NCBI GenBank assembly: GCA_030650425.1
Contig: JAUSED010000005.1
Location: 206,932 to 270,931 of the forward strand
Reading direction: 5' to 3'
DNA from: Candidatus Omnitrophota bacterium
Lineage (GTDB): Bacteria; Omnitrophota; Gorgyraeia; Gygaellales; Profunditerraquicolaceae
DNA length: 64,000 bases
Notes under the pieces: model-generated
Seen by the model: only the letters and a program-made list of their open reading frames with translations
Told to the model about the DNA's origin: nothing
The model's database searches: none
Program-made: the position numbers and the translations under genes
Shown here: piece after piece, positions 2,706 to 32,323 of the stretch
Layout: each line of letters starts with the position of its first letter
Numbering within the stretch: position 1 is the first letter of the stretch

Positions 2706-3773
2706 TTGCTAGGGGACACTTTCCGTCAAGGCTCTTTCGAAGCCACTCAAAGGAAAGTGTCCCCTAGAGGCTCAAGCCCTGCCAGCAGGGGACATTTTCC
2801 GTCAGGGCTATCAGGGAACTCTTCTAAGGAAAGTGTCCCCTGGGACAAGGCTAAGCTTCAAGAAGAAACCCAAACCCTGCTCAATTACTTCCTCGTAGGA
2901 GTCACCCTCCCAGACTCTATGTTCTGGGTTAACCTACGCCCTGACTCCGAAGACCAGATTATTGACCAATATCTAGAGAAGACTGATGTAGGCAGGATTA
3001 TGCTGGAAGCTGATCTCCAACTCAAGAAAGACACTAGCGCAATGACCTCTCCAGCTACCCCTGAAGGAAGAGAATACTGGGATAGGCTCTATAAGAAGGC
3101 CGCTGATCTCTACGGCTATGACAATGTGACCATCCCCACTCTAACCCGTCCCTGGATTGTCCCGGGTGAGATTATCGTCAGAGAATCCCAAGACTCTGTC
3201 TATGTCTATAAGGCTACGCTTAAAGTCATGCTAGAGCAGGATTACCTCCAAGGAACGGCTATCCGTTATCCTGAGCTTGCTAGCCGTCATCCTGAGCCCC
3301 GCAGGGGCGAAGGATCTAATTCCTTAGATTCTTCCCCTTCGGCTTCGCCTCGGGGTCAGAATGACTATAGTTTTAAAGATATCCGCTCTAAAGCTCTTAA
3401 TGAATACTCCACTCAACTAATCAAAGAACTAATTATTCCTAAACTTACTAAAGAAGTCAACTCATCCAAAAGATATGCTCCCCTAAGACAAGTCTATTAC
3501 TCTTTAATTCTCTCCCGCTGGTTCAAACAGAAGTTTAAGCCAGCAGGGGACGCCCAGATAGTAGGGGACACTTTCCGTCAGGGCTCTAATGAAAGCCTCA
3601 AAAGGAAAGTGTCCCCTACCTTCGTCAGCCTTATTGACTCCAAAAACCTCACTAACCTCATTTCCAAAGACTCTTGGAGCAAAACCGACTATTTCAAGCA
3701 ATACCAAAAATCCTTCTCCGCAGGAGAATACAATATCCAAGAGCCGGTGGTATTTGTGGATGCGGTGAGTTAA
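2706..3773 (+). CDS. Hypothetical protein whose N-terminus and C-terminal region are built from REP-family hairpin repeats (encoded 'GDTFRQGS' segments)
   Basis: 355-aa ORF with plausible coding texture between 2860 and 3540. REP copies at 2710..2766, 2787..2841 and 3562..3618 are all read through in-frame. The true start is uncertain. Confidence 0.4.
   Translation: MLGDTFRQGSFEATQRKVSPRGSSPASRGHFPSGLSGNSSKESVPWDKAKLQEETQTLLNYFLVGVTLPDSMFWVNLRPDSEDQIIDQYLEKTDVGRIMLEADLQLKKDTSAMTSPATPEGREYWDRLYKKAADLYGYDNVTIPTLTRPWIVPGEIIVRESQDSVYVYKATLKVMLEQDYLQGTAIRYPELASRHPEPRRGEGSNSLDSSPSASPRGQNDYSFKDIRSKALNEYSTQLIKELIIPKLTKEVNSSKRYAPLRQVYYSLILSRWFKQKFKPAGDAQIVGDTFRQGSNESLKRKVSPTFVSLIDSKNLTNLISKDSWSKTDYFKQYQKSFSAGEYNIQEPVVFVDAVS
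2710..2766. repeat. REP-like hairpin element, family R copy A (TAGGGGACACTTTCC - 27-nt loop - GGAAAGTGTCCCCTA)
   Basis: Perfect 13-bp inverted repeat. The loop begins GTCAAGGCTCT. Confidence 0.85.
2787..2841. repeat. REP-like hairpin element, family R copy B (GGGGACATTTTCC ... GGAAAGTGTCCCC)
   Basis: 13-bp arms with one mismatch. The loop begins GTCAGGGCTAT. Confidence 0.8.
3562..3618. repeat. REP-like hairpin element, family R copy C, in-frame near the 3' end of ORF 2706..3773
   Basis: TAGGGGACACTTTCC-GTCAGGGCTCTAATGAAAGCCTCAAAA-GGAAAGTGTCCCCTA. Confidence 0.85.
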
Positions 3774-3786
3774 TATACACATATAG

Positions 3787-3833
3787 AAAAAATGGGGACA
3801 GTCTCCAAAAGGCGGGGACAGTCCCCATTTTTT
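3787..3833. repeat. Compound palindromic element, family P copy 3 (intergenic; one C->T change in the first unit)
   Basis: aaaaaaTGGGGACAGTCTCCaaaaggcGGGGACAGTCCCCAtttttt. The ~8 nt on each flank are also similar to copy 2. Confidence 0.85.
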
Positions 3834-3845
3834 CGCCTATTCTGC

Positions 3846-3873
3846 TTGACACTCGAGGTATTCCTGCTAAAAT
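3846..3873 (+). promoter_or_regulatory. Sigma70-like promoter candidate for the hydrogenase/Mrp operon (TTGACA-N16-TAAAAT)
   Basis: TTGACA at 3846..3851 and TAAAAT at 3868..3873. REP copy D lies between this promoter and the first start codon, so it would sit in the 5'UTR. Confidence 0.4.
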
Positions 3874-3957
3874 ATTACCCAATTCGTGTTAACCATCCTT
3901 ATTGCAAGGCTTTTTAGGCCTATCGATTGTAAAGGGACAGTTTCTAAGCACCTACAG

Positions 3958-4008
3958 TAGGGGACACTTTCCAATAAATAGTAAACGCTCGTAGGAAAGT
4001 GTCCCCTA
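3958..4008. repeat. REP-like hairpin element, family R copy D, in the 5' leader of the hydrogenase operon
   Basis: TAGGGGACACTTTCC - 21-nt AT-rich loop - GGAAAGTGTCCCCTA. A degenerate half-site GGGACAGTTTCT lies at 3933..3944. Confidence 0.85.
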
Positions 4009-4025
4009 CTGCTAAAGATACTACT

Positions 4026-5468
4026 ATGCATTATAGCGGTTTGGTTTTAGGGGCTATTTTTATTCCGGTTCTCGGCGCGTTCTGCCTGCCTTTGGCGGCA
4101 AAGGTATCCAAACGACTACGGAATATCCTGTCTTTCATTTTTATCGCTTCTTCTTTTATCCTTTGCTTAGAGCTTATCCCATTAGTTTTATCCGGACAGA
4201 CAGTTTCTATCTCCAAACAATTTGCCTTGGGCCTTAACTTTAGCCTGCTGGCGGACAGCCTCGCCGTATTTATGGCCTGCGTCTCAAGCTTAATCAGCGC
4301 GATCATCGCCTTGTATTCATTTGGCTACATCAGCCATTATGAAAATCAGAATGAATATTATTGCATGGTTACGCTTTTTCTCGGCGCGATGATCGGTTTG
4401 ATTTTTTCCGCCAACCTCATTCTTCTCTATATATTCTGGGAGATTACCGCGATTACCAGCTGGCGCTTGATTGGGTTCTTTAGAGATAAGCCGTACGTGC
4501 TTAAAGCGGATAAAGCGTTTTTAGTTACGGTTTTTGGAAGCCTTTTAATGTTAATCGGTTTCTTAAATATTTATCAGCAGACAGGTTCGTTCGACTTACC
4601 GGTGATTAAAGAAAGCCTGAAATTCAGCGCAGTATCGAATTTAACGGTGGCTTTGATTCTGGCAGGTATATTTTCCAAGTCCGCGACCCTGCCCTTCCAA
4701 ACCTGGCTTCCTGATGCCGGTGTCGCGCCCAGCCCGGTAACCGCGCTTCTGCACGCCGCGGTCTTAGTCAAGATCGGCGTCTATGTTTTTGCCCGGATTT
4801 TTATCGTTAATATTACTCCGGATGTTTTATGGCATACGATCGTGCCTTTAATCGCCGGCCTAAGCGCGATTGTCTCAGCCGGAGCCGCCTTAATCGAAAC
4901 AGACTTAAAGAGGATTATTGCTTATTCCACGATCAGCCAGATTGGTTTTATTTTCTTTGGTTTGGCGCTCGGTAACGAAGTCGCGCTTTTAGGCGCGCTT
5001 CTTTTTATTCTGATGCACGGTTTGGCTAAAGCCGGGTTATTTCTTTGCGCCGGTATTGTCGAGCAGAACGCGAAGGTTAAGGATATCACTAAGCTTGGTG
5101 GATTGATTTCAACTATGCCAATTACCGCGATTTCGTTTTTGTTTTGTTCTTTTTCTATAATGGGGATACCTCCCTTCGGAGGGTTTTTTAGCAAGTATTT
5201 AGTTTTTAGCGGCGCCTTAGCCGAGGGAAGGCTTTGGATTATCTTGATCTATTTAGTCTGCGCGTTCATGACGATTATTTATCTTTTCCGGGTTTTTAAT
5301 CTGGTATTTTTAGGAAAGGCGAACATCCCAGCGCGAGAGGCCAGCCCGATGATGGTGAAGAGCGTGGCTACGCTGGCTATATTATCGCTCGTTGCCGGTA
5401 TATTGATCTATTATCCTTATCAGTTCGCGCAGAAAGCAAGCTGGCAGATGCTGGAGGTGATCAGATGA
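4026..5468 (+). CDS. Mrp/NuoL/M/N-family antiporter-like subunit 1 of a group-4 hydrogenase complex (MbhH/HyfB-like)
   Basis: Polytopic membrane protein with the 'TWLPDA' motif typical of proton-conducting Mrp/complex-I antiporter subunits. The start was moved to the ATG at 4026, after the REP element; the tracked ORF starts at 3999. Confidence 0.8.
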   Translation: MHYSGLVLGAIFIPVLGAFCLPLAAKVSKRLRNILSFIFIASSFILCLELIPLVLSGQTVSISKQFALGLNFSLLADSLAVFMACVSSLISAIIALYSFGYISHYENQNEYYCMVTLFLGAMIGLIFSANLILLYIFWEITAITSWRLIGFFRDKPYVLKADKAFLVTVFGSLLMLIGFLNIYQQTGSFDLPVIKESLKFSAVSNLTVALILAGIFSKSATLPFQTWLPDAGVAPSPVTALLHAAVLVKIGVYVFARIFIVNITPDVLWHTIVPLIAGLSAIVSAGAALIETDLKRIIAYSTISQIGFIFFGLALGNEVALLGALLFILMHGLAKAGLFLCAGIVEQNAKVKDITKLGGLISTMPITAISFLFCSFSIMGIPPFGGFFSKYLVFSGALAEGRLWIILIYLVCAFMTIIYLFRVFNLVFLGKANIPAREASPMMVKSVATLAILSLVAGILIYYPYQFAQKASWQMLEVIR

Positions 5469-7300
5469 TGGTCCAAGCCTTACTGCTTATTCTGATCATT
5501 CCTTTGATTTCCGGGGTGATCATGTTTTTTATCCCCAAGAAAGAGCGCAGGGCTCAAGAAGGTTTGTTAATCATCGCCAGTTTAGCTAATTTTATCCTCG
5601 CGGTATCTCTATTCCCGCAAAATTTTACTTACAGGTTGCCGTGGCTCGACTCGGGAATCGAACTGTCTTTTAGGCTGTATAATTTTAGCAGCTTTATGCT
5701 TTTATCTACTGCTTTTTTTGGTTTCTTAATCGCTTTGTACTCGGTTATTTTTATGCGGGGAAGGAATTTCCTCAACCAGTTTTACGGGTATTTTCTGCTC
5801 TGTATTTTTTTTAGTAACGCGGTATTTTTATCCGATAACCTTTTGGTTTTATTCTTCTTTTGGGAAGGCCTTTTACTTTCGCTCTTTGGGATGATTGCGG
5901 TGGGTAATAAAGAGGCATTTAAGACTGCCACCAAAGCCTTTATCATTATTGGGGTGACGGATTTGTGTATGATGTTAGGGATTGCTTTGACCGGACACTT
6001 AAGCGGGACAATGACCCTTTCCAAAATTAATCTTCCGCTGAATAATCCCCTTGCCAGCATAACCTTTATTCTGTTGATGATCGGCGCGATTTCAAAAGGC
6101 GGGGCAATGCCTTTTCATAGCTGGATTCCGGACGCCGCCACTGACGCGCCGCTTCCTTTTATGAGTTTTGTGCCGGGGGCGATGGAGAAACTTTTAGGGA
6201 TCTATTTTCTTACCAGAATTTCATTGGATTTATTTCAACTCAACGCCCAGTCAGGCTTAAGTACTTTACTGATGAGTATCGGCGGAATAACGATTATCCT
6301 GGCGGTAATGATGGCTTTAATCCAGAAAGATTATAAGCGGCTCTTGTCGTATCATGCCATTAGCCAGGTTGGTTATATGATTTTAGGTGTTGGCACAGCT
6401 CTTCCTGCCGGTATCGTCGGCGGGCTCTTTCATATGATCAATAATGCCTTATATAAAAGCGGGCTCTTTCTTACCGCCGGGAGCGTGGAAAAACAAGCCG
6501 GTACAACGGATCTGGGTAAATTAGGCGGGTTAGGCAGGGTGATGCCGGTCACCTTTGGCTGTTTCCTGATTACGGCCTTGGCTATTTCCGGAGTCTGGCC
6601 CTTTAACGGGTTTTTCTCCAAGGAACTGGTCTATGACGCGGCGATTGAACGGGGGATGATTTTTTACCTTGCCGCTGTTGTCGGTTCATTCTTTACTGCT
6701 GCTTCTTTTTTAAAATTAGGGCATGCCGCATTTTTAGGCAAGCTCAGCTCCCAAAACGAAAAGACCAAAGAGGCAGCCGGAGCAATGCTGATTCCGATGA
6801 TCGTTATTGCCGCAGCCTGCGTAATTTTTGGCCTATTTAATCAACTTCCTTTAAAATACCTTATTCAGCCGATACTGGGAGATAGATTGGAAGGGCATAA
6901 TTTTAGCGGCTTCCCGGTTAACATAACACTAGTGGTTATTACTTTTGTAGTCTTATTTTTAGCCCTGGCCAACCATCTCTTCGGCGCCAAGATTAAAGGG
7001 AGCGGCTTAGCTGCCTTGGATCATATTCGTTACGCGCCGGCGCTCTCTAAGATTTACGACTTAGCTGAGAAAAGATTATTTGATCCTTATCACTGGGGTT
7101 TGGGCTTAGTGAATATTATTTCCAAGCTTAGCTTGGGCATAGATCGAGGGATAAACTGGCTCTCTGATGGATTAAGCGTGCGCTTGGCGTATGGCTTATC
7201 CTCGGGGATCAGGAAAGCCCACACAGGGAACTATTCAGTTTATTTATCCTGGTCCATCGCGGGGATGTTGATTATATTCGTTATATTAATTATTTTATAG
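5465..7300 (+). CDS. Mrp/NuoL-family antiporter-like subunit 2 (long form, 611 aa)
   Basis: Motif 'SWIPDAATDAP'; 14+ predicted TM helices; ATGA overlap with the upstream gene. Confidence 0.8.
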   Translation: MMVQALLLILIIPLISGVIMFFIPKKERRAQEGLLIIASLANFILAVSLFPQNFTYRLPWLDSGIELSFRLYNFSSFMLLSTAFFGFLIALYSVIFMRGRNFLNQFYGYFLLCIFFSNAVFLSDNLLVLFFFWEGLLLSLFGMIAVGNKEAFKTATKAFIIIGVTDLCMMLGIALTGHLSGTMTLSKINLPLNNPLASITFILLMIGAISKGGAMPFHSWIPDAATDAPLPFMSFVPGAMEKLLGIYFLTRISLDLFQLNAQSGLSTLLMSIGGITIILAVMMALIQKDYKRLLSYHAISQVGYMILGVGTALPAGIVGGLFHMINNALYKSGLFLTAGSVEKQAGTTDLGKLGGLGRVMPVTFGCFLITALAISGVWPFNGFFSKELVYDAAIERGMIFYLAAVVGSFFTAASFLKLGHAAFLGKLSSQNEKTKEAAGAMLIPMIVIAAACVIFGLFNQLPLKYLIQPILGDRLEGHNFSGFPVNITLVVITFVVLFLALANHLFGAKIKGSGLAALDHIRYAPALSKIYDLAEKRLFDPYHWGLGLVNIISKLSLGIDRGINWLSDGLSVRLAYGLSSGIRKAHTGNYSVYLSWSIAGMLIIFVILIIL

Positions 7301-7316
7301 TTACAGGAGAAAACTC

Positions 7317-8750
7317 GTGTACGCATTATTAGTTTTAGTCCCATTCTTTAGCCTTCTTGCCTTGAATCTTCCTTTTAGGGAACTGAATAGAAGGCTGGCC
7401 TTTGGCTTTGCCGCCATTTTATTTTTGCTGCAAATGGGCCTCGTATTTATTCCGGATGTTTATTTTTGGAGAGTGCACTTATCTTTCTTCGCTAATATTT
7501 TCCACTTTCAGCTGGCCGCGGATATTTTAAGTAAAGTTGTCTTGTTCTGCATTGGTTTGGTTTCTTTGACGGCCTTATGCGTTTCCCGTTCGTTGATCAA
7601 AGAATCCGAGGAAAGGTTTAATTTTATCAATATTATTTTACTGGCGGTAGCAGGGATGAACGGCGTAGCCTTAGCGCAGGATATATTCTCTCTTTACGTA
7701 TTTTTGGAGATTACCGCGGTTTCATCTTTCATTCTGATCGCGTTTGAAAAGGATATATTGGGATTGGAAAGCTCTTTTAAATACATTGTTCTTTCTGCTG
7801 TGGCTACAGTTCTGATGATCGCCGGTATTGCTATATTAATGTTCATTGCCGGAAGCACGAATTTCTCGGTCATCCATTCCGCGCTCTTAAGCCAGAACAG
7901 GAACCTCTTGCTCAGTCTGTCTATAGGGCTATTTCTTTCGGCGCTATTTATTAAGGCCGGGCTGATGCCTTTTCATGGCTGGCTTCCTGACGCTTATACT
8001 GCGGCGCCAGCCCCGGTATCGATATTCTTGGCAGGTATTGTGACTAAAGTTGCCGGGGTCTATTGTTTGATCAGGATAATCTTATCCGTCATCGGTTTTA
8101 ATGATCAATTAAAAGGTATTCTTTTATTAGTCGGAGCTTTCTCGGCTATTTTTGGCGCGCTTAGCGCCCTTACGCAAAGCGATTTTAAGAGGATGCTTAG
8201 CTATTCCAGTATTAGTCAAATCGGTTATATTATATTAGGTTTAGGGAGCGGTACAGCTTTAGGGGTTGCCGGCGCGACCTTACATATTTTTAATCACGCG
8301 GTATTCAAATCGCTCCTTTTCGTAAATTCCGCGGCAGTAGAGAGCCAGACAGGTTCAAGAGATATAGATAAGATGAACGGTTTAGCTAAGCAGATGCCTT
8401 GGACGAGCTTAACCTCGATTTTAGGGAGTTTATCCTGCGCGGGCATTCCGCCTCTGGCCGGATTTTGGAGCAAGCTGGTGATCATCATCGCGCTCTGGCT
8501 GGCCGGTTATAAGATTTACGCGGTGATCGCGGTATTGGGAAGCCTGTTGACCTTAGCCTATTTTTTGGCCCTGCAAAGGAAACTTTTCTTTGCTCAGCCA
8601 AATGATGAATTCAAGAATATTAAAGAAGCCGGGTTTGGCCTCATCTTTCCCGCGTTTTTCCTCGCGGCTTTGATTGTGGGTGCAGGGATATTATCTCCCT
8701 GGATACTCAGTAACTTTATTTTAGGTTTTAATTCACTAGTAGGAGGTTAG
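7317..8750 (+). CDS. Mrp/NuoN/M-family antiporter-like subunit 3
   Basis: 'GWLPDAYTAAPAP' motif; GTG start with RBS CAGGAGAAAA. Confidence 0.8.
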   Translation: MYALLVLVPFFSLLALNLPFRELNRRLAFGFAAILFLLQMGLVFIPDVYFWRVHLSFFANIFHFQLAADILSKVVLFCIGLVSLTALCVSRSLIKESEERFNFINIILLAVAGMNGVALAQDIFSLYVFLEITAVSSFILIAFEKDILGLESSFKYIVLSAVATVLMIAGIAILMFIAGSTNFSVIHSALLSQNRNLLLSLSIGLFLSALFIKAGLMPFHGWLPDAYTAAPAPVSIFLAGIVTKVAGVYCLIRIILSVIGFNDQLKGILLLVGAFSAIFGALSALTQSDFKRMLSYSSISQIGYIILGLGSGTALGVAGATLHIFNHAVFKSLLFVNSAAVESQTGSRDIDKMNGLAKQMPWTSLTSILGSLSCAGIPPLAGFWSKLVIIIALWLAGYKIYAVIAVLGSLLTLAYFLALQRKLFFAQPNDEFKNIKEAGFGLIFPAFFLAALIVGAGILSPWILSNFILGFNSLVGG

Positions 8751-8751
8751 T

Positions 8752-9246
8752 TTGTTGCTGGAGTTATTGATATTAATATTATTAGTTAGCGCGGGGTTAT
8801 GGACAGTGATGACCCGGAGCCTTTTACGTTCGGCTATGGGCTTGGCCTTAGCCAGCGCGATCCTAACTATAGTCATGTTTAGAATGAACGCTAATATAGC
8901 GGGTGTTTTCGAATTATCGGTCTGCGCGGGATTAATCCCGGTTTTATTTATCAGCGTGATTAGCCTTACCCAGCCAATGACCTTTAAAGAGGCATCCGAC
9001 CATATGAAAGAAAGATTACATCGTTTCTGGGGCCTGCCCTTAATCGTGGTTGTTTTAGGAGTAACGCTTGCTTTGGTGAGTTTTAAATATAAGGTTACAC
9101 CGGCAGCGATTCAGGAGGGAAAACCGGATGTGCGTTTTATCTTATGGCATTTAAAGCAATTTGATTTACTGGGACAGATCATCATACTTTTTACCGGAGT
9201 GTTTGGCGTGGCGATCTTATTTAAGGAAAGGAATAAGCGTGGCTAA
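8752..9246 (+). CDS. MnhB/MrpB-like small membrane subunit
   Basis: 164-aa hydrophobic protein; TTG start with a strong RBS (TAGGAGGTTAG); position in the operon. Confidence 0.5.
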   Translation: MLLELLILILLVSAGLWTVMTRSLLRSAMGLALASAILTIVMFRMNANIAGVFELSVCAGLIPVLFISVISLTQPMTFKEASDHMKERLHRFWGLPLIVVVLGVTLALVSFKYKVTPAAIQEGKPDVRFILWHLKQFDLLGQIIILFTGVFGVAILFKERNKRG

Positions 9247-9532
9247 CGCGATTACGGTGATTTTACTTTTTATTATCGGTATCTATTGTATCTTGGTGAG
9301 CCATAATTTAATCCGCGTCTTAATCGGATTAGAGATCCTGATTAAGGCGGTTACGCTTTTAGTTATATTTTGCGGTTATCAAACCCAAAACACAGCTTTA
9401 GCCCAAGCGCTGGTGATTACTATTATTGTCATTGAAGTAGTAATGATGACTGTGGCAGCAGGGGTGGTGGTGGGTATCCATCGCCAGAATAATTCGCTGG
9501 ACGCGCGAAATATAAGAAAATTGAAAGGATAA
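9239..9532 (+). CDS. NuoK/MrpC-like subunit
   Basis: ~97 aa with 3 TM helices. GTG start at 9239 preceded by AAGGAAAGGAAT; the tracked ORF begins at 9161 and overlaps the previous gene. Confidence 0.55.
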   Translation: MANAITVILLFIIGIYCILVSHNLIRVLIGLEILIKAVTLLVIFCGYQTQNTALAQALVITIIVIEVVMMTVAAGVVVGIHRQNNSLDARNIRKLKG

Positions 9533-9538
9533 CCTCTA

Positions 9539-9871
9539 ATGGGGAATTTACTGGTTAGCCCGCCGGTTGTTTTTACCATAATCTTGGCCTTACTTTTTCT
9601 CTTAAACCGTTTATGCGCGGGAATAGCCTTTCATTCCGATAAGAATCAAGCGAGCTGTTGTAAATCTTACGCCTGCGGAGAGAATAATTTCAACAGCAAT
9701 GCCCAGCCGGATTACAGTCTTTTTTTTCCTTTCGCCTTTTTCTTTACCTTAGCGCATGTGGCCACCTTGATGATTACTACTATTCCTTTTATCGACGCCG
9801 GCGCGCTGATGATAGCGATGTTTTATATTATCAGTGGGATTATCGGGTTGTATATATTATTAAGGAAATAG
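9539..9871 (+). CDS. Small membrane subunit of the hydrogenase module (function unclear; NuoA/MbhI-like position)
   Basis: 110-aa ORF with two hydrophobic segments and a Cys-rich loop. Assigned by operon context only. Confidence 0.35.
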   Translation: MGNLLVSPPVVFTIILALLFLLNRLCAGIAFHSDKNQASCCKSYACGENNFNSNAQPDYSLFFPFAFFFTLAHVATLMITTIPFIDAGALMIAMFYIISGIIGLYILLRK

Positions 9872-9891
9872 AAAAAGGTGACAGATAGAAT

Positions 9892-10341
9892 ATGATGAAT
9901 TTAACTAAAAAGATAATTACTTGGGCGAGAATCAAATCTCCATGGATCTTACACTTTAATACCGGGGCTTGCAATGCCTGCGACATTGAAATTATTGCCG
10001 CCTTAACGCCGCGCTATGACTTGGAGCGTTTCGGGGTTTTACTCAAAGGCTCGCCGCGCCACGCGGATGTATTGGTTTGTTCCGGGCCGGTGACTAAGCA
10101 GATAGAAGAGAGGTTATGCCGGATTTATGAACAGATGCCTGAGCCGAAATTTGTGGTGGCTGTCGGCGCCTGCGCCTGTTCCGGAGGAGTGAATAAAGGT
10201 TGTTATAATGTTGCCGAGGGGATAGATAAGGTTATTCCTGTTTCAGCGTATATCCCGGGTTGCCCGGCCAGCCCTAAGGCGATTATCGATGGCGTGGTTA
10301 AGCTTTTAGCCAGCCTTGAAGAGAAAGAAGCTAAAAAATAG
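9892..10341 (+). CDS. [NiFe]-hydrogenase small subunit / NuoB-like (proximal 4Fe-4S)
   Basis: Four conserved Cys: 'GACNACD', 'GACACSGG', 'GCPASP'. NuoB/MbhJ/EchC-family size of 149 aa. Confidence 0.85.
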   Translation: MMNLTKKIITWARIKSPWILHFNTGACNACDIEIIAALTPRYDLERFGVLLKGSPRHADVLVCSGPVTKQIEERLCRIYEQMPEPKFVVAVGACACSGGVNKGCYNVAEGIDKVIPVSAYIPGCPASPKAIIDGVVKLLASLEEKEAKK

Positions 10342-10353
10342 CGGGAGGTAACG

Positions 10354-10833
10354 ATGTCCCAAGAAGAAAAAATCAAAGAAAACCTAATCAGTAAATTCAG
10401 CTATCTTGATAATTCTATCAACTTAGTCCGGCCGCGGCGCATCTCTATTGAGGTCGGTTTGGATAATTTTTTAGCGGTCTTCGCGTATTTAGCTAAGGAT
10501 ATGCAATTTTCGCATCTATGCACGATCACCGGTTTAGATGAGCAGGAAAGATTGGGATTCATTTATCATTTGGCCGGCGCAGGCGGAGTGATGATAAATT
10601 TAAAGACCAGCGTGCCAAAAGCGAAGCCTTTGATTAAAAGTGTTACGGCTTATTTTCCCGGAGCTGAAATTTATGAAAGGGAATTGGTGGATTTATTCGG
10701 GGCAAAGGTTGAAGGCCTTCCACCCGGGCATCGTTATCCTCTGACTGATGATTGGCCTGCTGGCCAGCATCCTTTGAGAAAAGATTGGAGACCCAATCCT
10801 GATATAGGAAAGGAGGCGGGTAAAGATGCATAA
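10354..10833 (+). CDS. NuoC/30-kDa-subunit-like hydrogenase component (MbhK/EchD-like)
   Basis: 159 aa, position between the small and large subunits, and the 'ERxxxDxxGxxxxGxP'-like C-terminal motif (ERELVDLFGAKVEGLPPGHRYP). Confidence 0.7.
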   Translation: MSQEEKIKENLISKFSYLDNSINLVRPRRISIEVGLDNFLAVFAYLAKDMQFSHLCTITGLDEQERLGFIYHLAGAGGVMINLKTSVPKAKPLIKSVTAYFPGAEIYERELVDLFGAKVEGLPPGHRYPLTDDWPAGQHPLRKDWRPNPDIGKEAGKDA

Positions 10834-12061
10834 TTCAGAAGAGTTTAGGATTCCTATCGGTCCGCAGCATCCGGCATTAAAAGAGCCGGAGGGTTTTAGC
10901 GTAGCTCTTAAAGGCGAAAAAATCTTAGGCGTAGATATCCGTTTAGGTTACAATCACCGCGGGATAGAAAAAGCTGCTGAAGAGAGAAGCTATATACAGG
11001 ACATCTATCTTATTGAACGCGTCTGCGGCATATGTTCGCATTCGCACTCTACTTGTTTTGTTCAGACAGTTGAGGAGATTGCCGGTTTAACCGTTCCGGC
11101 CAGAGCGCTTTATATCCGCACGATTATCGCGGAATTAGAGAGGGTGCACAGCCATCTTTTGTGGCTGGGTGTAGCCGGACATGAAATTGGTTTTGATACT
11201 TTACTCATGTATTCCTGGCGGGATAGAGAAGTGGTGATGGATATTTTGGCGCTGGTTACCGGGAACAGGGTAAACTATGGTATGAATACTATTGGCGGAG
11301 TGCGCCGGGATATCAGCCTCCAACAGGCCCAAGAGATACTCAAAGCCATGGATATCTTGGAGGAGAGGACAAAATATTATATTGAAGTTGCTACCAACGA
11401 GACGACTATAATTAAAAGATTGTCAGGGGTAGGGGTTTTATCCCGCGAAGATGTTTTACTACTGGATGCGGTTGGGCCGACTGCCCGCGCCTCCGGGGTT
11501 AAGCGCGATGTGCGGGTTGATGATCCCTATGCCGCCTATGGGGAGCTCACCTTTAACGTGATTACCGATGATCATTGCGATGTTTACGGCAGGACAGTGG
11601 TCCGGGTTAAAGAACTTTTGGAATCCTACAAAATAATCCGGCAGGCGCTTAAGAATTTACCCGCTGGACCGATAGCGATCAGGGCTCCGCGCAAGATTCC
11701 GGCGGGTGAGGCCTTAGGCCGTTACGAAGCTCCACGCGGCGAAGATGTGCATTATGTCAAATCCAATGGCACTGAGAAGCCGGAGAGGGTTAAAATCAGG
11801 GCGCCTACTTTAGCCAATGTTCAGGCGGTAAAGCATATGCTGCGCGACAGGTTTTTAGCGGATATGCCGATAGTCGTCGCGGCGATTGATCCTTGTTTTT
11901 CCTGTACTGACCGTATGGTTAGATTAGCAGAGCAGGGGAGCGATAAATCCAAGATAATCAGTTGGCCTAGCCTGCACGCTTATAGTATAGAATGGCATAA
12001 AAAGCAGGGTATAGATTTTAGCGAACTTAATAAGAAGCTGGCAGCGAGGTTAGCGAGATAA
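10826..12061 (+). CDS. Group-4 [NiFe]-hydrogenase large subunit (NuoD-like; MbhL/EchE-type)
   Basis: N-terminal 'RVCGICSHSH' (RxCGxCxxxH) and C-terminal 'DPCFSCTDR' (DPCxxCxxR) Ni-Fe ligand motifs are both intact. Confidence 0.85.
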   Translation: MHNSEEFRIPIGPQHPALKEPEGFSVALKGEKILGVDIRLGYNHRGIEKAAEERSYIQDIYLIERVCGICSHSHSTCFVQTVEEIAGLTVPARALYIRTIIAELERVHSHLLWLGVAGHEIGFDTLLMYSWRDREVVMDILALVTGNRVNYGMNTIGGVRRDISLQQAQEILKAMDILEERTKYYIEVATNETTIIKRLSGVGVLSREDVLLLDAVGPTARASGVKRDVRVDDPYAAYGELTFNVITDDHCDVYGRTVVRVKELLESYKIIRQALKNLPAGPIAIRAPRKIPAGEALGRYEAPRGEDVHYVKSNGTEKPERVKIRAPTLANVQAVKHMLRDRFLADMPIVVAAIDPCFSCTDRMVRLAEQGSDKSKIISWPSLHAYSIEWHKKQGIDFSELNKKLAARLAR

Positions 12062-12063
12062 TT

Positions 12064-13005
12064 ATGTTAGGGGAGCTTTTTTACATATTTATATTTCCGG
12101 GATTTATTTTCCTGATTATTTTTAGCTTGACCGCGGAATTTATCGACCGCAAGATTTACGCCCGGCTGCAGAATAGGGTTGGGCCTCCCTGGTTTCAACC
12201 TTGGGCTGATTTTATCAAGTTGTTAGCTAAGGAAGATATTGTTCCGGCCGAATCTAATCCAAAGATGTTTAAGGTAGCTCCGATATTTGCCTTGGCCGCG
12301 GCAATAAGCGCGTTTCTTTATATCCCTCTCTGGAAGACGGACGCGTTATTTTCTTTTAATGGCGATTTGATCGTCGTCCTTTATCTGTTGACCCTGCCTA
12401 CACTAGCGTTTTTTATCGGAGGTTGGTATTCTACTTCGCTCTATTCCCGGATCGGTTCGGTGCGTTGTATGACTCAACTCTTTGCTTATGAAGTCCCTCT
12501 TTTTATGGGCATTCTTTCTTCGGCCTTATTGGCGGATAGCTGGTCATTAAAAGGAATCGCGGTTTTTTATATGGCTCATCCCTGGTTTTGGCTATTTAAC
12601 TTGGCCGGCTTTAGCGTATCTCTAATCAGTTTGTTGGGTAAACTGGAGAAAGTTCCTTTTGATATTCCTGAGGCAGAGACAGAAGTAGTTGCCGGAGCGT
12701 TTACCGAATATAGCGGCAGGATGCTCGCTTTTTTAAGGATGACCTTAGACATAGAATTGGTTACCGGAAGCGCGCTTTTAGCTTTAGTCTTCTTTCCTTT
12801 TGCTCTTAATGTTCATCCGGCTCTGGGGTTCGTAATTTTTATGATCAAAATTCTCTTTATCGTAAGTTTAATCGCGTTGCTGCGCACGGTGGTCGCCCGC
12901 TTGCGCATCGACCAGATGATTGATTTCTGCTGGAAATTCCTGGTTCCGCTTGCTGCCACGCAACTTTTACTAAATCTTATGTTGAAAGGAATGTTTTTAA
13001 GATGA
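12064..13005 (+). CDS. NuoH-like membrane anchor subunit (MbhM/EchB/HyfC-type)
   Basis: 313-aa polytopic protein with a NuoH/ND1-like pattern; position in the operon. Confidence 0.8.
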   Translation: MLGELFYIFIFPGFIFLIIFSLTAEFIDRKIYARLQNRVGPPWFQPWADFIKLLAKEDIVPAESNPKMFKVAPIFALAAAISAFLYIPLWKTDALFSFNGDLIVVLYLLTLPTLAFFIGGWYSTSLYSRIGSVRCMTQLFAYEVPLFMGILSSALLADSWSLKGIAVFYMAHPWFWLFNLAGFSVSLISLLGKLEKVPFDIPEAETEVVAGAFTEYSGRMLAFLRMTLDIELVTGSALLALVFFPFALNVHPALGFVIFMIKILFIVSLIALLRTVVARLRIDQMIDFCWKFLVPLAATQLLLNLMLKGMFLR

Positions 13006-13367
13006 GGCCGGGAAAGATGTTAAGAGAGGTGCTCGGGTCTATTTTTAAGAAACCGGCCACGAATTTATACCCGGCGCAAAAATTAGAGATGCCGGATAAA
13101 TTCCGCGGCAAACTTAAATTTTATCCTGAGAAATGTATCGGTTGCAAGATGTGCATGCGCGACTGCCCGACTAACGCCATCACTATCAATAAAATCGCTG
13201 AAAATAAGTTTGAGGCGGTTTTTGATTTAAGCCGCTGTATATATTGCGCGCAGTGCGTGGATTCCTGTCCCAAGAAGGCGCTGGAACCGACTAAAGATGT
13301 AGAGCTGGCCCAGTTGGATAAGAATAAACTGCGAGTGGTTTTTTCATATAAAGAAAAGAGCAGGTAA
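13002..13367 (+). CDS. NuoI-like 2x[4Fe-4S] ferredoxin subunit (MbhN/EchF-type)
   Basis: Two CxxCxxCxxxCP motifs: CIGCKMCMRDCP and CIYCAQCVDSCP. Confidence 0.85.
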   Translation: MRPGKMLREVLGSIFKKPATNLYPAQKLEMPDKFRGKLKFYPEKCIGCKMCMRDCPTNAITINKIAENKFEAVFDLSRCIYCAQCVDSCPKKALEPTKDVELAQLDKNKLRVVFSYKEKSR

Positions 13368-13466: not shown

Positions 13467-14063
13467 ATGAACTACTCAAGTTTGTTACATAACGATATGA
13501 CAGGATTACTCGCTAAGCTCGGAGATTTAGGCGTTTTTATAGCCATGTTCCTGGAGTCATGCATCGCGCCTATACCTTCGGAAGTAATCATCATCAGCGC
13601 CGGCGCAATCGGGTTCCCTTTAGCTTCAGTGGTTATTTTTGGTTCGTTAGGCTCGACTTTGGGGGCAATGGTGGGATACGCGTTAGGAAGATATGCCGCT
13701 ATGCCGGTATTATTGAAATTCGGCAGGTTCATTCTGATTAAACCGCACCATATTTATAAAGCGGAAGAATTCGCCAAAAAATACGGGGTGGCCAGCGTCT
13801 TTATTGGGAGGGTCCTTCCGATAATTCCCTTTAAGGTTTTTTCGATTGCCGCGGGGATTACCCATATTCCGTTTACGCCGTTTGTATTCTGCACCCTGCT
13901 TGGTGTTGTGCCGAGAATATTCCTCTTGGCTCTTTTTGGCGCGGCGATCGTCAAATATACAAAGGTAGTCTTTATTTTAATAATTTTTGCCGTACTGATA
14001 TTTTTGGCGCATAGGATATTACGTTATATTTATGGTGTAGGAAAGCATAAAACACTTTCCTAA
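13467..14063 (+). CDS. DedA/VTT-domain (SNARE-associated) family membrane protein
   Basis: 198-aa membrane protein with the typical DedA pattern (…FLESCIAPIPSEVII…GRVLPIIPF…). Confidence 0.65.
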   Translation: MNYSSLLHNDMTGLLAKLGDLGVFIAMFLESCIAPIPSEVIIISAGAIGFPLASVVIFGSLGSTLGAMVGYALGRYAAMPVLLKFGRFILIKPHHIYKAEEFAKKYGVASVFIGRVLPIIPFKVFSIAAGITHIPFTPFVFCTLLGVVPRIFLLALFGAAIVKYTKVVFILIIFAVLIFLAHRILRYIYGVGKHKTLS

Positions 14064-14158
14064 CCACTGAAACTTCATAAGGAAAGTTTTGAATCCCGCC
14101 TTTAGCGGGATGAAGTTTCTTGAGCGAAGAAAGAAAATAATATTAAGGGAGGTTCCCA

Positions 14159-14776
14159 ATGACTATCTGGCAGATGCTTAAAAGCGGCGGCCTAACCATT
14201 TATATACTTTTAGCCTGTTCGGTTCTATCGCTGGCCATCATTATCGAGAGGTATATTTATTATCGCCGAAGGTCCAGGGCCAAGAGGGCGCCTTTCATGT
14301 CCAAGATAAGTAAGGATTTGGAGAAAGGGAATCTGGTAAAAGCTTTGGATGCCTGTAAAAATATAGATACTCCATTTTCCAATGTCGTCTATTCAGGCCT
14401 TAATTTATCCGGGCACAACGAGATGCTCATCTCCAATACTATGGAGCGGGAAATAAGCATTGAGACGATCAAATTAGAAAAATATACGAGTATCGTAGGC
14501 ACAATCGGAAGCACCGCTGTCTATATCGGCCTCTTCGGGACGGTCTTGGGAATTATCCGCGCCTTTCACGATATTGCCGCGGCCGGCTCCGGAGGGATAA
14601 GTGTGGTAATTAGCGGCATATCCGAATCACTGGCTTGTACAGCTATGGGTTTATGCGTGGCTGTTCCGGCGGTGATTGCCTATAATTATTTTATCAAGAA
14701 GATCGATAATTTTATTACCGATATGGAATTGTGCGCTTCCGAGACAATGGATCTGTTGACTGTTAAGCAGAAATGA
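14159..14776 (+). CDS. MotA/TolQ/ExbB-family proton channel protein
   Basis: 3 TM helices plus a conserved C-terminal channel region (…FGTVLGIIRAFHDIA…LACTAMGLCVAVPAVIAYNYF). Confidence 0.75.
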   Translation: MTIWQMLKSGGLTIYILLACSVLSLAIIIERYIYYRRRSRAKRAPFMSKISKDLEKGNLVKALDACKNIDTPFSNVVYSGLNLSGHNEMLISNTMEREISIETIKLEKYTSIVGTIGSTAVYIGLFGTVLGIIRAFHDIAAAGSGGISVVISGISESLACTAMGLCVAVPAVIAYNYFIKKIDNFITDMELCASETMDLLTVKQK

Positions 14777-15180
14777 ATCTACGCGCCCACAAACAAAGAT
14801 TAATTGCTGAAATAAATATTACCCCTTTTACCGACGTCATTTTGGTTTTATTGATTATCTTTATGATCACGACGCCTTTAATACTTCAATCAAGCCTTAA
14901 GGTAAACCTGCCGCGGGCTGAGAGCGCTTCCGCGGTAAAAGAGATGGGGCCGGTTAATATCATCATCACCAATGAAGGCACCGTATATCTGGACGGAGCG
15001 ATGGTTACCCGTAGAGAACTAAGAGAAAGGATTAATAGCAGGCATAGGAATGATCCGAACTTAGCCGTGGTTGTAAGTTCCGACAGGCTCGTTCGTTTTA
15101 AGGATATCGTGGATATCCTGGATATTTTAAATACAGTAGGTATAAAAAATCTTAATATCGCGGCAACAAACGATAAATAG
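14773..15180 (+). CDS. ExbD/TolR-family protein
   Basis: 135 aa, a single N-terminal TM helix (ITPFTDVILVLLIIFMITTP), and overlap-coupled to the ExbB-like gene. Confidence 0.7.
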   Translation: MNLRAHKQRLIAEINITPFTDVILVLLIIFMITTPLILQSSLKVNLPRAESASAVKEMGPVNIIITNEGTVYLDGAMVTRRELRERINSRHRNDPNLAVVVSSDRLVRFKDIVDILDILNTVGIKNLNIAATNDK

Positions 15181-15198
15181 GAAAGGAGAACTTGTAAA

Positions 15199-17481
15199 AT
15201 GTTAGGTTTAATGAACGCGAGTGTTTTCGAGACGTTTGCGATTTGGGGAGTGCTTCTAATTGCTTTTCTGGGGTTAGCTTATGCTTTGTTATTGCGTAAA
15301 CAGATTATGGCGCATGATAAAGGTACGCAAGGTATGCAGGATGTCTGGAATGCCATCCGCACAGGAGCGGATGCTTACTTAAGCCGCCAGTTAAAAAGCA
15401 TACTGCCTTTAATTTTAGTACTTACCGCTGTTTTATTTTTCTCGGTCTATATTATCCCGCCTAGCGATGAGGCATTAAGGCGTTTTAGCAAATTTACTCC
15501 GGATATGGTCCGGCTGATCGTCGGTTTGGGAAGGGCCGCGGCATTCGTGATGGGCGCTTTCTTTTCGCTTACCGTGGGCCAGTTTGGGATGCGTATGGCG
15601 GTTGAGGGTAATGTGCGGGTTGCCTCTGCCTCCCGCAGGAGTTTTAGCGAGGCGTTAAAAATAGCCTACCGGACCGGGACGATTACCGGAATGCTTACTG
15701 ACGGCCTTGGGCTTTTAGGCGGGACAGTCATCTTTATTATTTTCGGTATAGCTTCGCCCGACGTATTACTAGGGTTTGGTTTTGGCGGGACGCTCCTGGC
15801 GCTCTTTATGCGTGTCGGCGGCGGCATCTACACTAAGGCAGCGGACGTCGGCGCGGATTTAGTCGGGAAAGTAGAGAAAAATATTCCTGAAGATGATCCA
15901 AGAAACGCCGCGGTGATCGCTGATCTTGTGGGAGATAATGTCGGCGATTGCGCGGGTATGGCCGCGGATATATTTGAGTCATATGAGGTAACCATTGTTT
16001 CCGGCTTGATTTTAGGTTTAGCGCTGGTTTCCATTACCGGAGAGCTAAAATGGATCGTTTTCCCGCTTTTAGTGCGCGGTATCGGCGTGCTTTCTTCGAT
16101 TATCGGTACGTATCTGGTAAAAGGAAATAAGAAGGATGGCAAAGGGCAAGATGCCTTTAAGAGTATCAATCGCGGATTTTATTCATCTGCCGCAATTTCT
16201 GTGGCTGCATTTTTAATTTTAGCTCATTATTATATGCATGAATGGAGGGCCTTCTTTTCTGTGGCCATGGGTATAGTTTTGGCTATCGTGATTGACGAAA
16301 TAACCAAATACTTCACCCATACGCATCACGCGCCGGTCAAAGAAATCGCCTCTTCATCCCGGACGGGTGCCGCAACCTTGATTTTACGCGGCTTATCCAT
16401 CGGACTTGAATCCAGTGCTTGGCAGTTTGTGGTTATTGCGCTTACGATTATGGCTGCTGTTATTATCTATTGGGGCCAGCCCGTGGTTTTTGTCCTTTAT
16501 GGTGTAGCGATGACCGGCATCGGTATGCTTACCTTAACCGGTAATAATGTGGCGATGGATTCATTCGGCCCGATCGCGGATAATGCTAACGGTATTGGCG
16601 AAATGGCGCATTTAGAGCCAGAGGCCCGGCAGATTATGGCTGACCTTGACGCTGTAGGAAATACTACTAAAGCCATCACTAAAGGTGTAGCCATTGGTTC
16701 AGCAGTGATTGCCGCGGTTTCTTTGTTCGGCGCTTTTTTAACCGATGTTACCAAGGTGCAGGCGCAGATGGGGGTGGTAGAATCTTTACGGCTTCTATCT
16801 ACCGGTATCAGGGTTTCTGAGCCGATTGTTTTTGTCGGCGTGCTGATCGGAGCCGCGGTGCCTTGTTTATTTTCCAGCCTGATGATTAATTCCGTAGCCC
16901 GCGCGGCTGCCTTGATTGTGGATGAGGTACGTAGACAATTCCATACCCCGGGAGTGATGGAAGGGAAAGTCAAGCCAGACTATAAAAAGGCAGTGGATAT
17001 TTGTACGATAGCCGCGCAAAGAGAGCTTATTGGTTTGGCTTTGATTGCCGTATTAAGCCCGATTTTAATCGGTATGGTCTTGAGGGTTGAAGCTTTAGGC
17101 GGATTTTTGGCTGGCGTAATTGTTTCAGGCCAGCTTTTGGCAGTGTTTATGGCTACCGCAGGTGGAGCTTGGGATAATGCCAAGAAGACGATCGAAGATG
17201 GCTTATATGGGGGTAAAGGTTCTGAGGCGCATAAATCATCGGTTGTCGGCGATACAGTCGGTGATCCTCTCAAAGATACTTCCGGCCCGGCATTGAATCC
17301 GATGATTAAGGTAATTAATCTTGTTTCTCTTCTGGCCGCGCCTATAATTATTCACTATCGTCAAACTGATGTAGGTGTTATAATTGCAATTGTGCTCTGC
17401 GTAGTCTTGATATTCGGCGCGATCCTTTATTCAAAACACGGAGCCCTAAGTTTTAGAAAAAAGAGCGAAGCGGGTTTCTAG
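15199..17481 (+). CDS. hppA: Membrane-bound H+(or Na+)-translocating pyrophosphatase
   Basis: 760 aa with hallmark motifs '[20 protein letters not shown]' and '[23 protein letters not shown]'. Confidence 0.9.
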   Translation: [760 protein letters not shown]

Positions 17482-17490
17482 TTTCCCTAG

Positions 17491-17570
17491 TAGGGGACAC
17501 TTTCCTTTAGTAGTTTAGTAAGAGCCCTGACGGAAAGTGTCCCCTAGTTGTGAGTTAGGAAAGTGTCCCC
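17491..17570. repeat. REP-like hairpin element, family R copy E (inverted orientation relative to A-C) plus an extra right half-site
   Basis: TAGGGGACACTTTCC…AGAGCCCTGAC-GGAAAGTGTCCCCTA. The loop ends with the reverse complement of the GTCAGGGCTCT seen in copies A-C. An additional GGAAAGTGTCCCC lies at 17558..17570. Confidence 0.85.
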
Positions 17571-17629
17571 TGAATGGTAGAGAGAAAATTTCCTTGCAAA
17601 AGCAAAACTTGAATGTTAAGCTGTGCTTA

Positions 17630-22503: not shown

Positions 22504-22916
22504 TGAGGGTTGTTTTAACGAATATAAAAACCGCAATCGTTTTCTTAGTGGAAATTATATGTATTTTTATGATTATAGCGTTTTCGGCGCTTTATTTCAT
22601 ATTTAAAAAAGGAGATTTTATATTTTTTGTAACTAGTATTTTGTTATTTAGTACCGGGTGTATTGTTTTAGATTTAATTAGAAGAAACAAAATCCCACTT
22701 TTTGTGACTAATATTACAAAGGTAGATAATTCTTCGAGATTAATGTTGGGTTTGCTTTGCATAGCCCTTGGTTTAAGTGGATTTTATTATGCTTATAGTA
22801 ATCCTAATGATAAATTGCTAGGTATTTTTGGGGGATTATTATTTGGTCTTGGTGGTATCGGTTTACTTATCCCGAATGAAAAAGAAAATAAAACAAGAAA
22901 AGAGAATAAGGAATAA
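22500..22916 (+). CDS. Putative RHS immunity protein (small 4-TM membrane protein)
   Basis: 138-aa ORF overlap-coupled (ATGA) to the 3' end of the RHS toxin gene; four hydrophobic helices. Assigned from polymorphic-toxin gene architecture only. Confidence 0.4.
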   Translation: MMRVVLTNIKTAIVFLVEIICIFMIIAFSALYFIFKKGDFIFFVTSILLFSTGCIVLDLIRRNKIPLFVTNITKVDNSSRLMLGLLCIALGLSGFYYAYSNPNDKLLGIFGGLLFGLGGIGLLIPNEKENKTRKENKE

Positions 22917-25628: not shown

Positions 25629-25638
25629 TAGTTGGGTA

Positions 25639-25872: not shown

Positions 25873-25873
25873 A

Positions 25874-26964: not shown

Positions 26965-26965
26965 G

Positions 26966-28277: not shown

Positions 28278-28278
28278 T

Positions 28279-29808: not shown

Positions 29809-32323
<2,515 letters not shown>

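Follow-up and report, generated by a model that had tools for sequence, protein, structure and literature searches.

The 64-kb stretch of DNA analysed here (the window, meaning the whole stretch) comes from a Candidatus Omnitrophota metagenome-assembled genome (MAG) and carries an operon for a membrane-bound hydrogenase. In the open reading frame (ORF) list of the whole window, 11 intact ORFs lie on the + strand between 3999 or 4026 and 13367, where a preliminary description had placed a compact 11-gene cluster. Neighbouring genes overlap or are separated by 1-20 bp, which indicates a single transcription unit. Judged by sequence, this operon encodes an 11-subunit, energy-converting group-4 [NiFe] hydrogenase with the same 11 subunit types as the core of complex I and Fpo. 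Strong Pfam or NCBIfam matches were obtained for 10 of the 11 proteins and a weak match for the remaining one, of 110 aa; the expected NuoB, NuoC, NuoD, NuoH and NuoI homologues were each matched by their Pfam family, as was the MrpC/NuoK-like gene by PF00420. In the letters of the complex I subunits the gene order is L'-L-N-J-K-A-B-C-D-H-I:

3999-5468, + strand: antiporter-like subunit 1 (NuoL/HyfD/MrpA-N type, no lateral helix); PF00361 at 6e-70, plus PF00662
5465-7300, + strand: antiporter-like subunit 2, a full-length NuoL homologue of 611 aa; NF005141 and TIGR01974
7317-8750, + strand: antiporter-like subunit 3 (MrpD/NuoN/NuoM type); PF00361 at 2e-68, best NCBIfam matches MrpD, NuoM and NuoN
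8752-9246, + strand: NuoJ-like protein, 164 aa; PF00499 (Oxidored_q3) at 35.6 bits, gathering score 33.2
9239-9532, + strand: NuoK/MrpC-like protein, 97 aa; PF00420 (Oxidored_q2) at 1.7e-18; start corrected to 9239, following the gene call in the relative locus L001
9539-9871, + strand: probable divergent NuoA/ND3-like protein with three transmembrane (TM) helices, 110 aa; Oxidored_q4 at E = 0.029
9892-10341, + strand: hydrogenase small subunit (NuoB/HycG/MbhJ type); PF01058 at 3.6e-31
10354-10833, + strand: NuoC/30-kDa-like protein, not fused to the large subunit; PF00329 at 8e-24
10826-12061, + strand: [NiFe] large subunit, 411 aa; Complex1_49kDa plus NiFeSe_Hases
12064-13005, + strand: NuoH/MbhM-like membrane anchor; PF00146 at 7e-75
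13002-13367, + strand: NuoI/MbhN/HycF-like subunit with two [4Fe-4S] clusters; Fer4 families

The catalytic head carries the ligands of a hydrogenase. The NuoD homologue had been described as retaining both CxxC pairs, and a HMMER alignment to solved structures bears this out column for column: its L1 motif RVCGICSHSH lies opposite RMCGICSFSH of MbhL and RVCGICGFAH of HycE, and its L2 motif DPCFSCTDR lies opposite DPCLSCTDR of MbhL and DPCYSCTDR of HycE. The putative Ni-Fe cysteines thus stand opposite the MbhL and HycE ligands and are not mis-assigned. At the same columns, Thermus thermophilus Nqo4 reads RMDYLHSFAH and DPVMGDVDR, without the cysteines. DPCFSCTDR is invariant in 120 of the 120 closest homologues, and among those listed the CGIC motif shows no variation. 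By score ranking, with solved structures, E. coli paralogues and representatives of 50% clusters as references, the large subunit is closest to MbhL (329.6 bits, 48% identity), followed by HycE (295.9 bits, 40%), Nqo4/NuoD (222 bits) and MbsL (181 bits). It also matches the complex I family PF00346 (E = 4e-71), and an identical protein in NCBI is named "nickel-dependent hydrogenase large subunit".

The other redox subunits point the same way. The NuoB homologue has the hydrogenase-type motif GACNAC (GGCNGC in HycG) in place of the tandem-cysteine SCC of NuoB and also has ligands three and four, in GACACSGG and IPGCP, giving four cysteines for one proximal [4Fe-4S] cluster; it is 43% identical to HycG and HyfI versus 38% to NuoB. 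The NuoI homologue has two CxxCxxCxxxCP motifs that align with those of HycF, HyfH and NuoI. The operon therefore combines the features of group 4: the L1 and L2 motifs, a four-cysteine small subunit, a NuoI-like protein with two [4Fe-4S] clusters, a NuoH-like anchor and three PF00361 proteins. We rejected complex I, given the NiFe cysteines at the NuoD position and CNAC rather than CC in the NuoB homologue. The hydrogenase-related (Ehr) complex was rejected as well, as all four NiFe cysteines are kept; Ehr, Mbx and Mbs resemble the operon in being group-4-derived membrane complexes with several antiporter-like subunits, but lack these cysteines.

A C-terminal extension of 48 residues follows DPCFSCTDR in the large subunit. 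Its start aligns with the peptide that HycI removes from HycE (KSKIISWPSLHAYSIEW versus KSKVVPYKELERYSIER), and its core, W..L..YS.EW...GIDF..LNK, is conserved family-wide. Across the clade the core of the large subunit is 86% identical and the extension 50%, and the extension is nowhere truncated. Together with the scores, the small-subunit CxxC and the linkage of the family to hycI and hyp genes described below, this HycE-like extension upholds the view that the operon encodes a true group-4 [NiFe] hydrogenase and not a remnant of the complex I or Ehr type.

The membrane arm departs from the preliminary description in its affiliation. The three antiporter-like subunits are as described, each matching Proton_antipo_M (E from 1e-52 to 6e-70), and one of them has the full NuoL lateral helix. 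In this 611-aa NuoL homologue, residues 4-610 align with positions 3-611 of the 615 of NF005141 and residues 6-607 with TIGR01974; it keeps the C-terminal TM15, the lateral helix HL and TM16, and its C-terminal ...HTGNYSVYLSW aligns with NuoL and HyfB. The TM5 glutamate and the TM7, TM8 and TM12 lysines are kept in all three subunits, the charged axis comprising E148, K227, H252, K258 and K399 in subunit 1 (whose best E. coli matches are HyfD and NuoL), E134, K211, K242 and K386 in subunit 2, and E131, K213, K244 and K386 in subunit 3. The NuoK homologue keeps both membrane glutamates (the equivalents of E36 and E72), and the TM3 glutamate is conserved in the NuoJ homologue. Among solved structures, the NuoH homologue scores about equally with MbhM (142.6 bits) and Nqo8 (131.7), and far higher than with HycD (72.3). 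The gene first labelled MrpB-like is better described as NuoJ/MbhD-like: PF00499 scores above its gathering score, whereas the MbhD/DUF4040 and MrpB signals are faint (MrpB E = 5e-5). Its product is related to MbhD/MbsD and DUF4040, with MbsD, MbhD and Nqo10 as its PDB matches, and is a single polypeptide of NuoJ-like length and layout, unlike the split MbhD/MbhE.

The 110-aa protein, initially noted as a small TM protein, is indeed small and has three TM helices, but is better read as a divergent NuoA. A profile of its family (28 sequences) gave one match in the PDB, to ND3 (7zm7_3, E = 0.015), which pairs the invariant YACGE of the family with FECGF of ND3; the whole motif YACGE...AQPDYS..F..FFFT.AHV is invariant. 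An AlphaFold 2 model shows three TM helices and the long TM1-TM2 loop typical of ND3, at a predicted local distance difference test score (pLDDT) of only 67, and a Foldseek search with this model ranks NdhC/ND3 highest, at a non-significant E of about 1. JGI names homologues of the protein "subunit A", and NCBI annotates the NuoA homologue as hypothetical. These weak but specific and concordant scores, the topology and the gene position make a divergent NuoA probable. In TM2 the family has FFFTLAHV in place of the acidic FVIFDVE of E. coli NuoA, whose acidic residues we take to be D79 and E81, and His73 is invariant across the family. Such features may mean that the ND3-type loop has adapted to a NiFe site where complex I has its quinone cavity.

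The presence of NuoJ and NuoA homologues and the lack of Mrp-specific subunits mark the arm as one of the complex I type rather than an Mrp module. The "Mrp module" of the preliminary description does not hold: MrpE, MrpF, MrpG and MrpB are missing, and the membrane genes are NuoA, NuoH, NuoJ and NuoK homologues plus the three antiporter-like subunits. In Pfam and NCBIfam, none of the 11 operon proteins matched an MrpE, MrpF or MrpG family. This bears on a Na+-coupled enzyme of the Mbh/Mrp type, in which H+ pumped by the redox reaction would be exchanged for Na+ by an Mrp antiporter module. MbhL is the closest solved large subunit, the antiporter-like subunits match MrpA and MrpD models, and the enzyme has been labelled Mrp-linked in the literature (PMC8542988). 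The operon, however, has no homologue of MrpE/F/G/B (MbhA/B/C/F), its NuoJ is unsplit, it includes both a NuoA homologue and a full NuoL, and the neighbouring ATPase c subunit and pyrophosphatase (PPase) are of the H+ type by sequence signature. We regard Na+ coupling by such a module as improbable, and rejected assignment to the Mbh/Mrp-linked type (4d/4b) for want of an MrpE/F/G match, even though MbhL is the best PDB match.

The PPase gene, hppA, is part of an arrangement specific to Omnitrophota, hydrogenase-(hycI)-(dedA)-exbB-exbD-hppA, whose portion beyond the hydrogenase occupies 13467-17481 of the window and which recurs in loci L004, L008-L013, L015 and L017; the ATP synthase operon lies further along the window:

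13467-14063: DedA/VTT-domain gene, in the slot of hycI
25531-32085: F-type ATP synthase operon, with the c subunit at 26966-27196

The H+-PPase HppA carries GNTTKAITKG, a recognised signature of K+-independent, H+-pumping PPases. The ATPase c subunit (…GCAFIEALTIYALV…) is without the Q...E-S/T signature of Na+ binding, and its sequence suggests an H+-coupled F-type ATP synthase. With no Mrp Na+ module and with both the c subunit and HppA of the H+ type, we favour H+ rather than Na+ as the coupling ion of the hydrogenase.

The operon is one of a widespread family. Scanning one genome for each GTDB species gave 80 loci, whose gene order was read by tblastn with the window proteins; the 11-gene order is conserved in essentially every locus of sufficient length, at 65-87% identity of the large subunit. 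The loci are attributed to at least 15 phyla, although some MAG labels may be wrong, and the attributed taxa include Omnitrophota, Spirochaetota, Endomicrobiales/Elusimicrobiota, Verrucomicrobiota, Lentisphaerae, Fibrobacterota, Riflebacteria, Margulisiibacteriota/WOR-1, Krumholzibacteria, Bipolaricaulota, Myxococcota, Geobacter, Bacteroidales and Acidobacteriota. One such locus (L023; large subunit 75% identical) is in the complete genome of Ca. Velamenicoccus archaeovorus LiM, and the Endomicrobiales loci have large subunits about 70% identical. A gene for a HycI-type endopeptidase directly follows nuoI in most of the roughly 80 loci, and hypB and/or hypCDE adjoin the operon in 8; a profile search with the Omnitrophota HycI proteins found 3338 homologues. 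At 50% clustering, one full-length representative (559 bits) lies near the family, which appears to collapse as a whole into a single cluster. The next clusters, at 45-59% identity, include proteins of Methanoregula, Anaerolineales, Bathyarchaeota, Asgard archaea and Kosmotoga.

No NuoEFG, formate dehydrogenase (FDH), CooS/carbon monoxide dehydrogenase (CODH) or HycB/HyfA-like gene was found in the cluster in any of the roughly 80 loci. In the absence of an input module (NuoEFG, FDH, CODH or HycB), ferredoxin would be the simplest donor, as for Mbh and Ech. The same observation speaks against a Hyf-like or otherwise donor-specific complex whose dehydrogenase partner (FDH, CODH or a NuoEFG-like module) is encoded elsewhere. 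Such a complex would fit the number and types of the antiporter-like subunits, which equal those of E. coli HyfB, HyfD and HyfF, as well as the HycE-like extension and the HycI-type protease. But the clusters contain neither a HyfA/HycB-type ferredoxin nor FDH or CODH, NuoC and NuoD are unfused, and the H subunit is nearer to NuoH/MbhM than to HycD and the K subunit nearer to NuoK than to HyfE, which makes this reading very improbable.

The E. coli Hyf (4a) complex likewise has three antiporter-like subunits, with HyfD resembling gene 1, HyfB gene 2 and HyfF gene 3, and Hyf and Hyc (Hyc PDB 7Z0S) share with the operon a HycE-type C-terminal peptide, a HycI-type protease and a small subunit (HycG/HyfI) of 43% identity. 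They differ in their fused NuoC-D, their HyfA/HycB ferredoxin and FDH-H partner, the lack of a NuoA or NuoJ homologue, and HyfE in place of NuoK. Membership of Hyc/Hyf (4a) was rejected: C and D are separate, and no locus has a HycB-like gene or FDH. Pyrococcus furiosus Mbh (4d; PDB 6CFW) is the closest solved structure for both the large subunit (48%) and the NuoH-like subunit (142.6 bits), and the working model is likewise one of H2 evolution from reduced ferredoxin with coupled ion translocation; Mbh differs in having 14 subunits, a single antiporter-like subunit, a split MbhD/E and the Mrp-derived Na+ module MbhA/B/C/F. With its three antiporter-like subunits the operon does exceed classical Mbh, as first noted, but three is not unprecedented, since Hyf has as many and an 11-subunit enzyme, Hfo, has been published (PMC7886697). 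The complex I/Fpo core shares all 11 subunit types, a full NuoL with HL and the Glu/Lys axis in the L, M, N, K and J equivalents; it differs in the quinone-site residues at NuoD, the NuoB CC motif, the gene order and a single L-type antiporter where the window operon has two.

A close precedent in architecture is Hfo, an archaeal 11-subunit, Fpo-like [NiFe] hydrogenase of group 4g described by Loh et al. in 2021 from Bathyarchaeia, Pyrodictium and Methanomethylicus (HydDB 4g, subclade 4g-6) and presented as the first hydrogenase with the complex I subunit set and without the Na+ module of Mbh; ferredoxin reduction driven by the proton-motive force (pmf) was proposed for it (PMC7886697). Like the window operon, Hfo comprises A, B, C, D, H, I, J and K plus three antiporter-like subunits, keeps the NiFe L1 and L2 motifs, and has neither a NuoEFG/FpoFO input module nor MbhABCF, with ferredoxin as the presumed partner. 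It differs in being archaeal and in its gene order, A-B-C-D-H-I-J-K-L-M-N, whereas the window family is bacterial and ordered L'-L-N-J-K-A-B-C-D-H-I(-hycI). Bathyarchaeota large subunits are among the nearest clusters outside the family, at 52-56% identity; in the nearest of them (P0124) the large subunit has 560 residues and the match begins at residue 175, in keeping with a NuoC-like domain fused at the N terminus. In kind, then, the architecture is not new; what sets the bacterial version apart from Hfo is the order of its genes and the domain of its hosts.

Group 4g, which is heterogeneous and polyphyletic (PMC7886697, PMC13582414), has been reported before in these lineages: a membrane-bound 4g NiFe hydrogenase in the Omnitrophota Saelkia and Gorgyraea by a HydDB-based survey (PMC8542988), and 4g enzymes in V. 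archaeovorus and Fontincolimonas (PMC10066038). Genome surveys class the group-4 enzymes found in V. archaeovorus and in Endomicrobium as 4g and presume them to be ferredoxin-dependent and H2-evolving (PMC10066038, PMC11257099, PMC8542988). From the organisms and the sequence similarity, we infer that these reports concern the same loci as L023 and those of Endomicrobiales. The window operon is a further instance of a catalogued, biochemically unexplored family.

Taken together, these features lead us to propose, with moderate confidence, that the operon encodes a ferredoxin-dependent, reversible, H+-translocating hydrogenase that evolves H2. The peripheral arm would consist of the NuoI-like subunit with its two [4Fe-4S] clusters, the NuoB-like subunit with one, NuoC and the NiFe large subunit; the membrane arm would consist of NuoH, NuoA, NuoJ, NuoK and the three antiporter-like subunits, which the long lateral helix of the NuoL homologue would hold together. 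Reduced ferredoxin, the putative donor, would dock on the NuoI-like subunit, and electrons would pass through the three [4Fe-4S] clusters to the NiFe site, where H+ would be reduced to H2. The reaction at the NuoH/NuoA interface would then drive the Glu/Lys axis through J and K and the three antiporter-like subunits, with export of H+, and the resulting pmf would feed the H+-type F-ATP synthase and ExbBD encoded nearby. We expect the enzyme to work in both directions. The ferredoxin donor, H+ in place of Na+, the complex-I-like arrangement and the direction in vivo, H2 evolution in fermentation, are what we infer from the sequences.

Several points weigh against this proposal. The transfer of electrons from ferredoxin to H+ yields too little energy for about four H+ per 2 e-; the stoichiometry would have to be lower or the enzyme run in reverse, and an arm with three pumps is puzzling for H2 evolution. 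The scores behind the NuoA assignment are weak (E 0.015-0.03), and as of 2021 no 4g enzyme had been characterised, according to Loh et al. (PMC7886697). Maturation genes, too, are missing from the vicinity: where hycI would usually stand, the window and the relatives closest to it, L008-L012, have either nothing or a DedA/VTT-domain gene, and no hyp gene lies within the 64 kb.

The energy shortfall is one argument for the same enzyme working in reverse, with the pmf (from ATPase or H+-PPase) driving uphill ferredoxin reduction with H2. The reduced ferredoxin would serve CO2/acetyl-CoA reduction, as proposed for Eha/Ehb and Hfo, and the pumping modules would provide a high gear ratio. Three intact antiporter-like modules and the E-channel go beyond what electron transfer from ferredoxin to H2 can power, Loh et al. 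propose the same direction for the 11-subunit Hfo (PMC7886697), many 4g-bearing Omnitrophota carry Wood-Ljungdahl genes (PMC10066038), and in Omnitrophota the genes for an H+-PPase and ExbBD keep synteny with the operon. The window itself, on the other hand, has no Wood-Ljungdahl genes; it has genes for glycolysis and the phosphotransferase system (PTS), which, with pta-ackA near the operon in L002, fit a fermenter disposing of reductant, and published Omnitrophota reconstructions assume H2 evolution. We consider pmf-driven ferredoxin reduction a genuine but rather unlikely alternative.

The maturation genes bear on another reading, that of a decaying or non-hydrogenase remnant (Ehr/Mbx/complex-I-like or inactive) whose maturation protease gene has been lost. 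As the preliminary description had it, MrpE/F/G-like and hyp genes are not in the window: neither Pfam and NCBIfam nor tblastn with E. coli and locus-derived HycI and HypA-E found a HycI or Hyp homologue in the 64 kb, and hycI is gone from its conserved position here and in L008-L012. No hyp genes were found on the short Logan contigs (SRR13727527) returned for the large subunit and for the first and last complete window proteins, and among the top 120 of the 3338 HycI homologues none is encoded on a contig as long as that of the window (338,433 bp). Yet none of the 11 ORFs is broken, the ligands of the metal site are in place, and the extension, with its motif conserved across the clade, is retained although the adjacent hycI is gone. 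Maturation genes are often unlinked, and hycI could sit on another contig; L017 and L018 carry both hycI and dedA. Decay is accordingly the least probable of the readings considered, and a functional, H2-evolving hydrogenase remains the one we prefer.

A broader proposal, which we put forward tentatively and with some doubt, is that a bacterial clade inside 4g represents a "complex I with a hydrogenase head", with the 11 core subunits, an arm arranged as in complex I and not as in Mbh, an E-channel and three working pumps, and coupling strictly to H+. In that case the clade would be the bacterial counterpart of the archaeal Hfo and, among living bacteria, the closest model of the complex I ancestor. 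It would then have an unusual H+/2e- ratio, either slipping or in low gear for H2 evolution or in high gear for pmf-driven ferredoxin reduction. The question bears on the origin of complex I from hydrogenase and antiporter modules and on how a reaction of low free energy is coupled to several putative proton pumps. The clade, and nearly all of 4g, is biochemically uncharacterised, yet the operon is extremely conserved in at least 15 attributed phyla, and many of its carriers are uncultured anaerobes (Omnitrophota, Elusimicrobiota, Spirochaetota, Verrucomicrobiota, Margulisiibacteriota and others). We conjecture that the clade has been overlooked, to which the "hypothetical" annotation of NuoA and the scrambled gene order could have contributed. 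Such clusters are easily mis-scored as complex I (by PF00346, for example) or as "Mrp-linked Mbh", and metabolic reconstructions of Omnitrophota are distorted as a result. An Omnitrophota survey scored complex I by PF00346 (PMC10066038), and as the large subunit also matches this family, some of those calls may be this hydrogenase.

Upstream, the operon is preceded by a promoter-like site and by two families of repetitive extragenic palindromes (REPs), which we term REP-A and REP-B:

3786-3834, no strand assigned: REP-B palindrome, 47 nt when counted from 3788 (AAAAAATGGGGACAGTCyCC-AAAAGGC-GGGGACAGTCCCCATTTTTT), an inverted repeat with a terminator-like site at 3814-3826
3846-3873, + strand: sigma-70-like promoter TTGACA-16-TGcTAAAAT, 11/12 with an extended -10, called from the consensus match alone
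3955-4011, + strand: REP-A hairpin in the leader, with perfect 18-bp arms at 3955-3972 and 3994-4011 and a 21-nt loop
2707-2769, 2783-2800, 3559-3621, 3955-4011 and 17488-17549: REP-A copies

Both leader elements had been noticed at the outset, and both sites were recovered. The candidate promoter is the best of 22 sites in the 10.8 kb between 3500 and 14300, a region in which the total number of such sites is no higher than expected by chance. The hairpin (fold z = -5.2) is a true repetitive palindrome, its arms occurring 9 times in the window versus 0.02 expected. The REP-A family, TAGGGGACACTTTCC...GGAAAGTGTCCCCTA, has invariant 15-nt arms and variable loops of 21-28 nt, with four full copies in the window. 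The hydrogenase-dedA-exbBD-hppA block is bracketed by copies, one being that of the leader and another following immediately on hppA; two others lie in frame inside an ORF without a Pfam match (2706-3773), where they encode the repeated peptide GDTFRQGS...KRKVSP. The REP-A arms are absent from 88 of 88 other loci, including those of relatives at 87% large-subunit identity. A role for the leader hairpin as a conserved regulator of the operon was rejected on this ground, and the hairpin is a genome-specific REP. An Rfam scan of the window returned three tRNAs only; none of the riboswitches or leader RNAs known to Rfam precedes the operon.

The hairpin also bears on the start of gene 1. It covers the GTG at 3999, and the gene calls of relatives begin further in, at query residue 10 (equal to ATG 4026) in L002 and near residue 8 in L004, which makes ATG 4026 the likelier start. 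From there the protein has 480 aa, compared with 482-483 aa in relatives, and ATG 4026 is probably the true start.

REP-B (AAAAAATGGGGACAGTCCCCAAAAGGCGGGGACAGTCCCCATTTTTT) occurs in three near-identical copies in the window, at 1552-1596, 1771-1815 and 3788-3834; the last of these forms a bidirectional, terminator-like hairpin that closes the unit upstream of the operon. The other two lie inside a 520-aa ORF (847-2409) in which the PLD domain covers only residues 41-179, and this ORF is therefore probably over-extended or disrupted. A Y1_Tnp (IS200/RAYT-like) transposase gene lies at 23024-23518 on the - strand (PF01797, E = 1.7e-16). Its product could be a REP-associated tyrosine transposase (RAYT) from which the REP families arose, but no REP copies flank the gene.

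Other genes of the window include an AbiEii toxin-family gene at 89-826 and, at 17537-18253, a gene for a dockerin-domain protein, followed by one for a 1417-aa RHS/YD-repeat toxin-like protein (18250-22503). A small membrane ORF at 22500-22916 follows the RHS gene and may encode an immunity protein.

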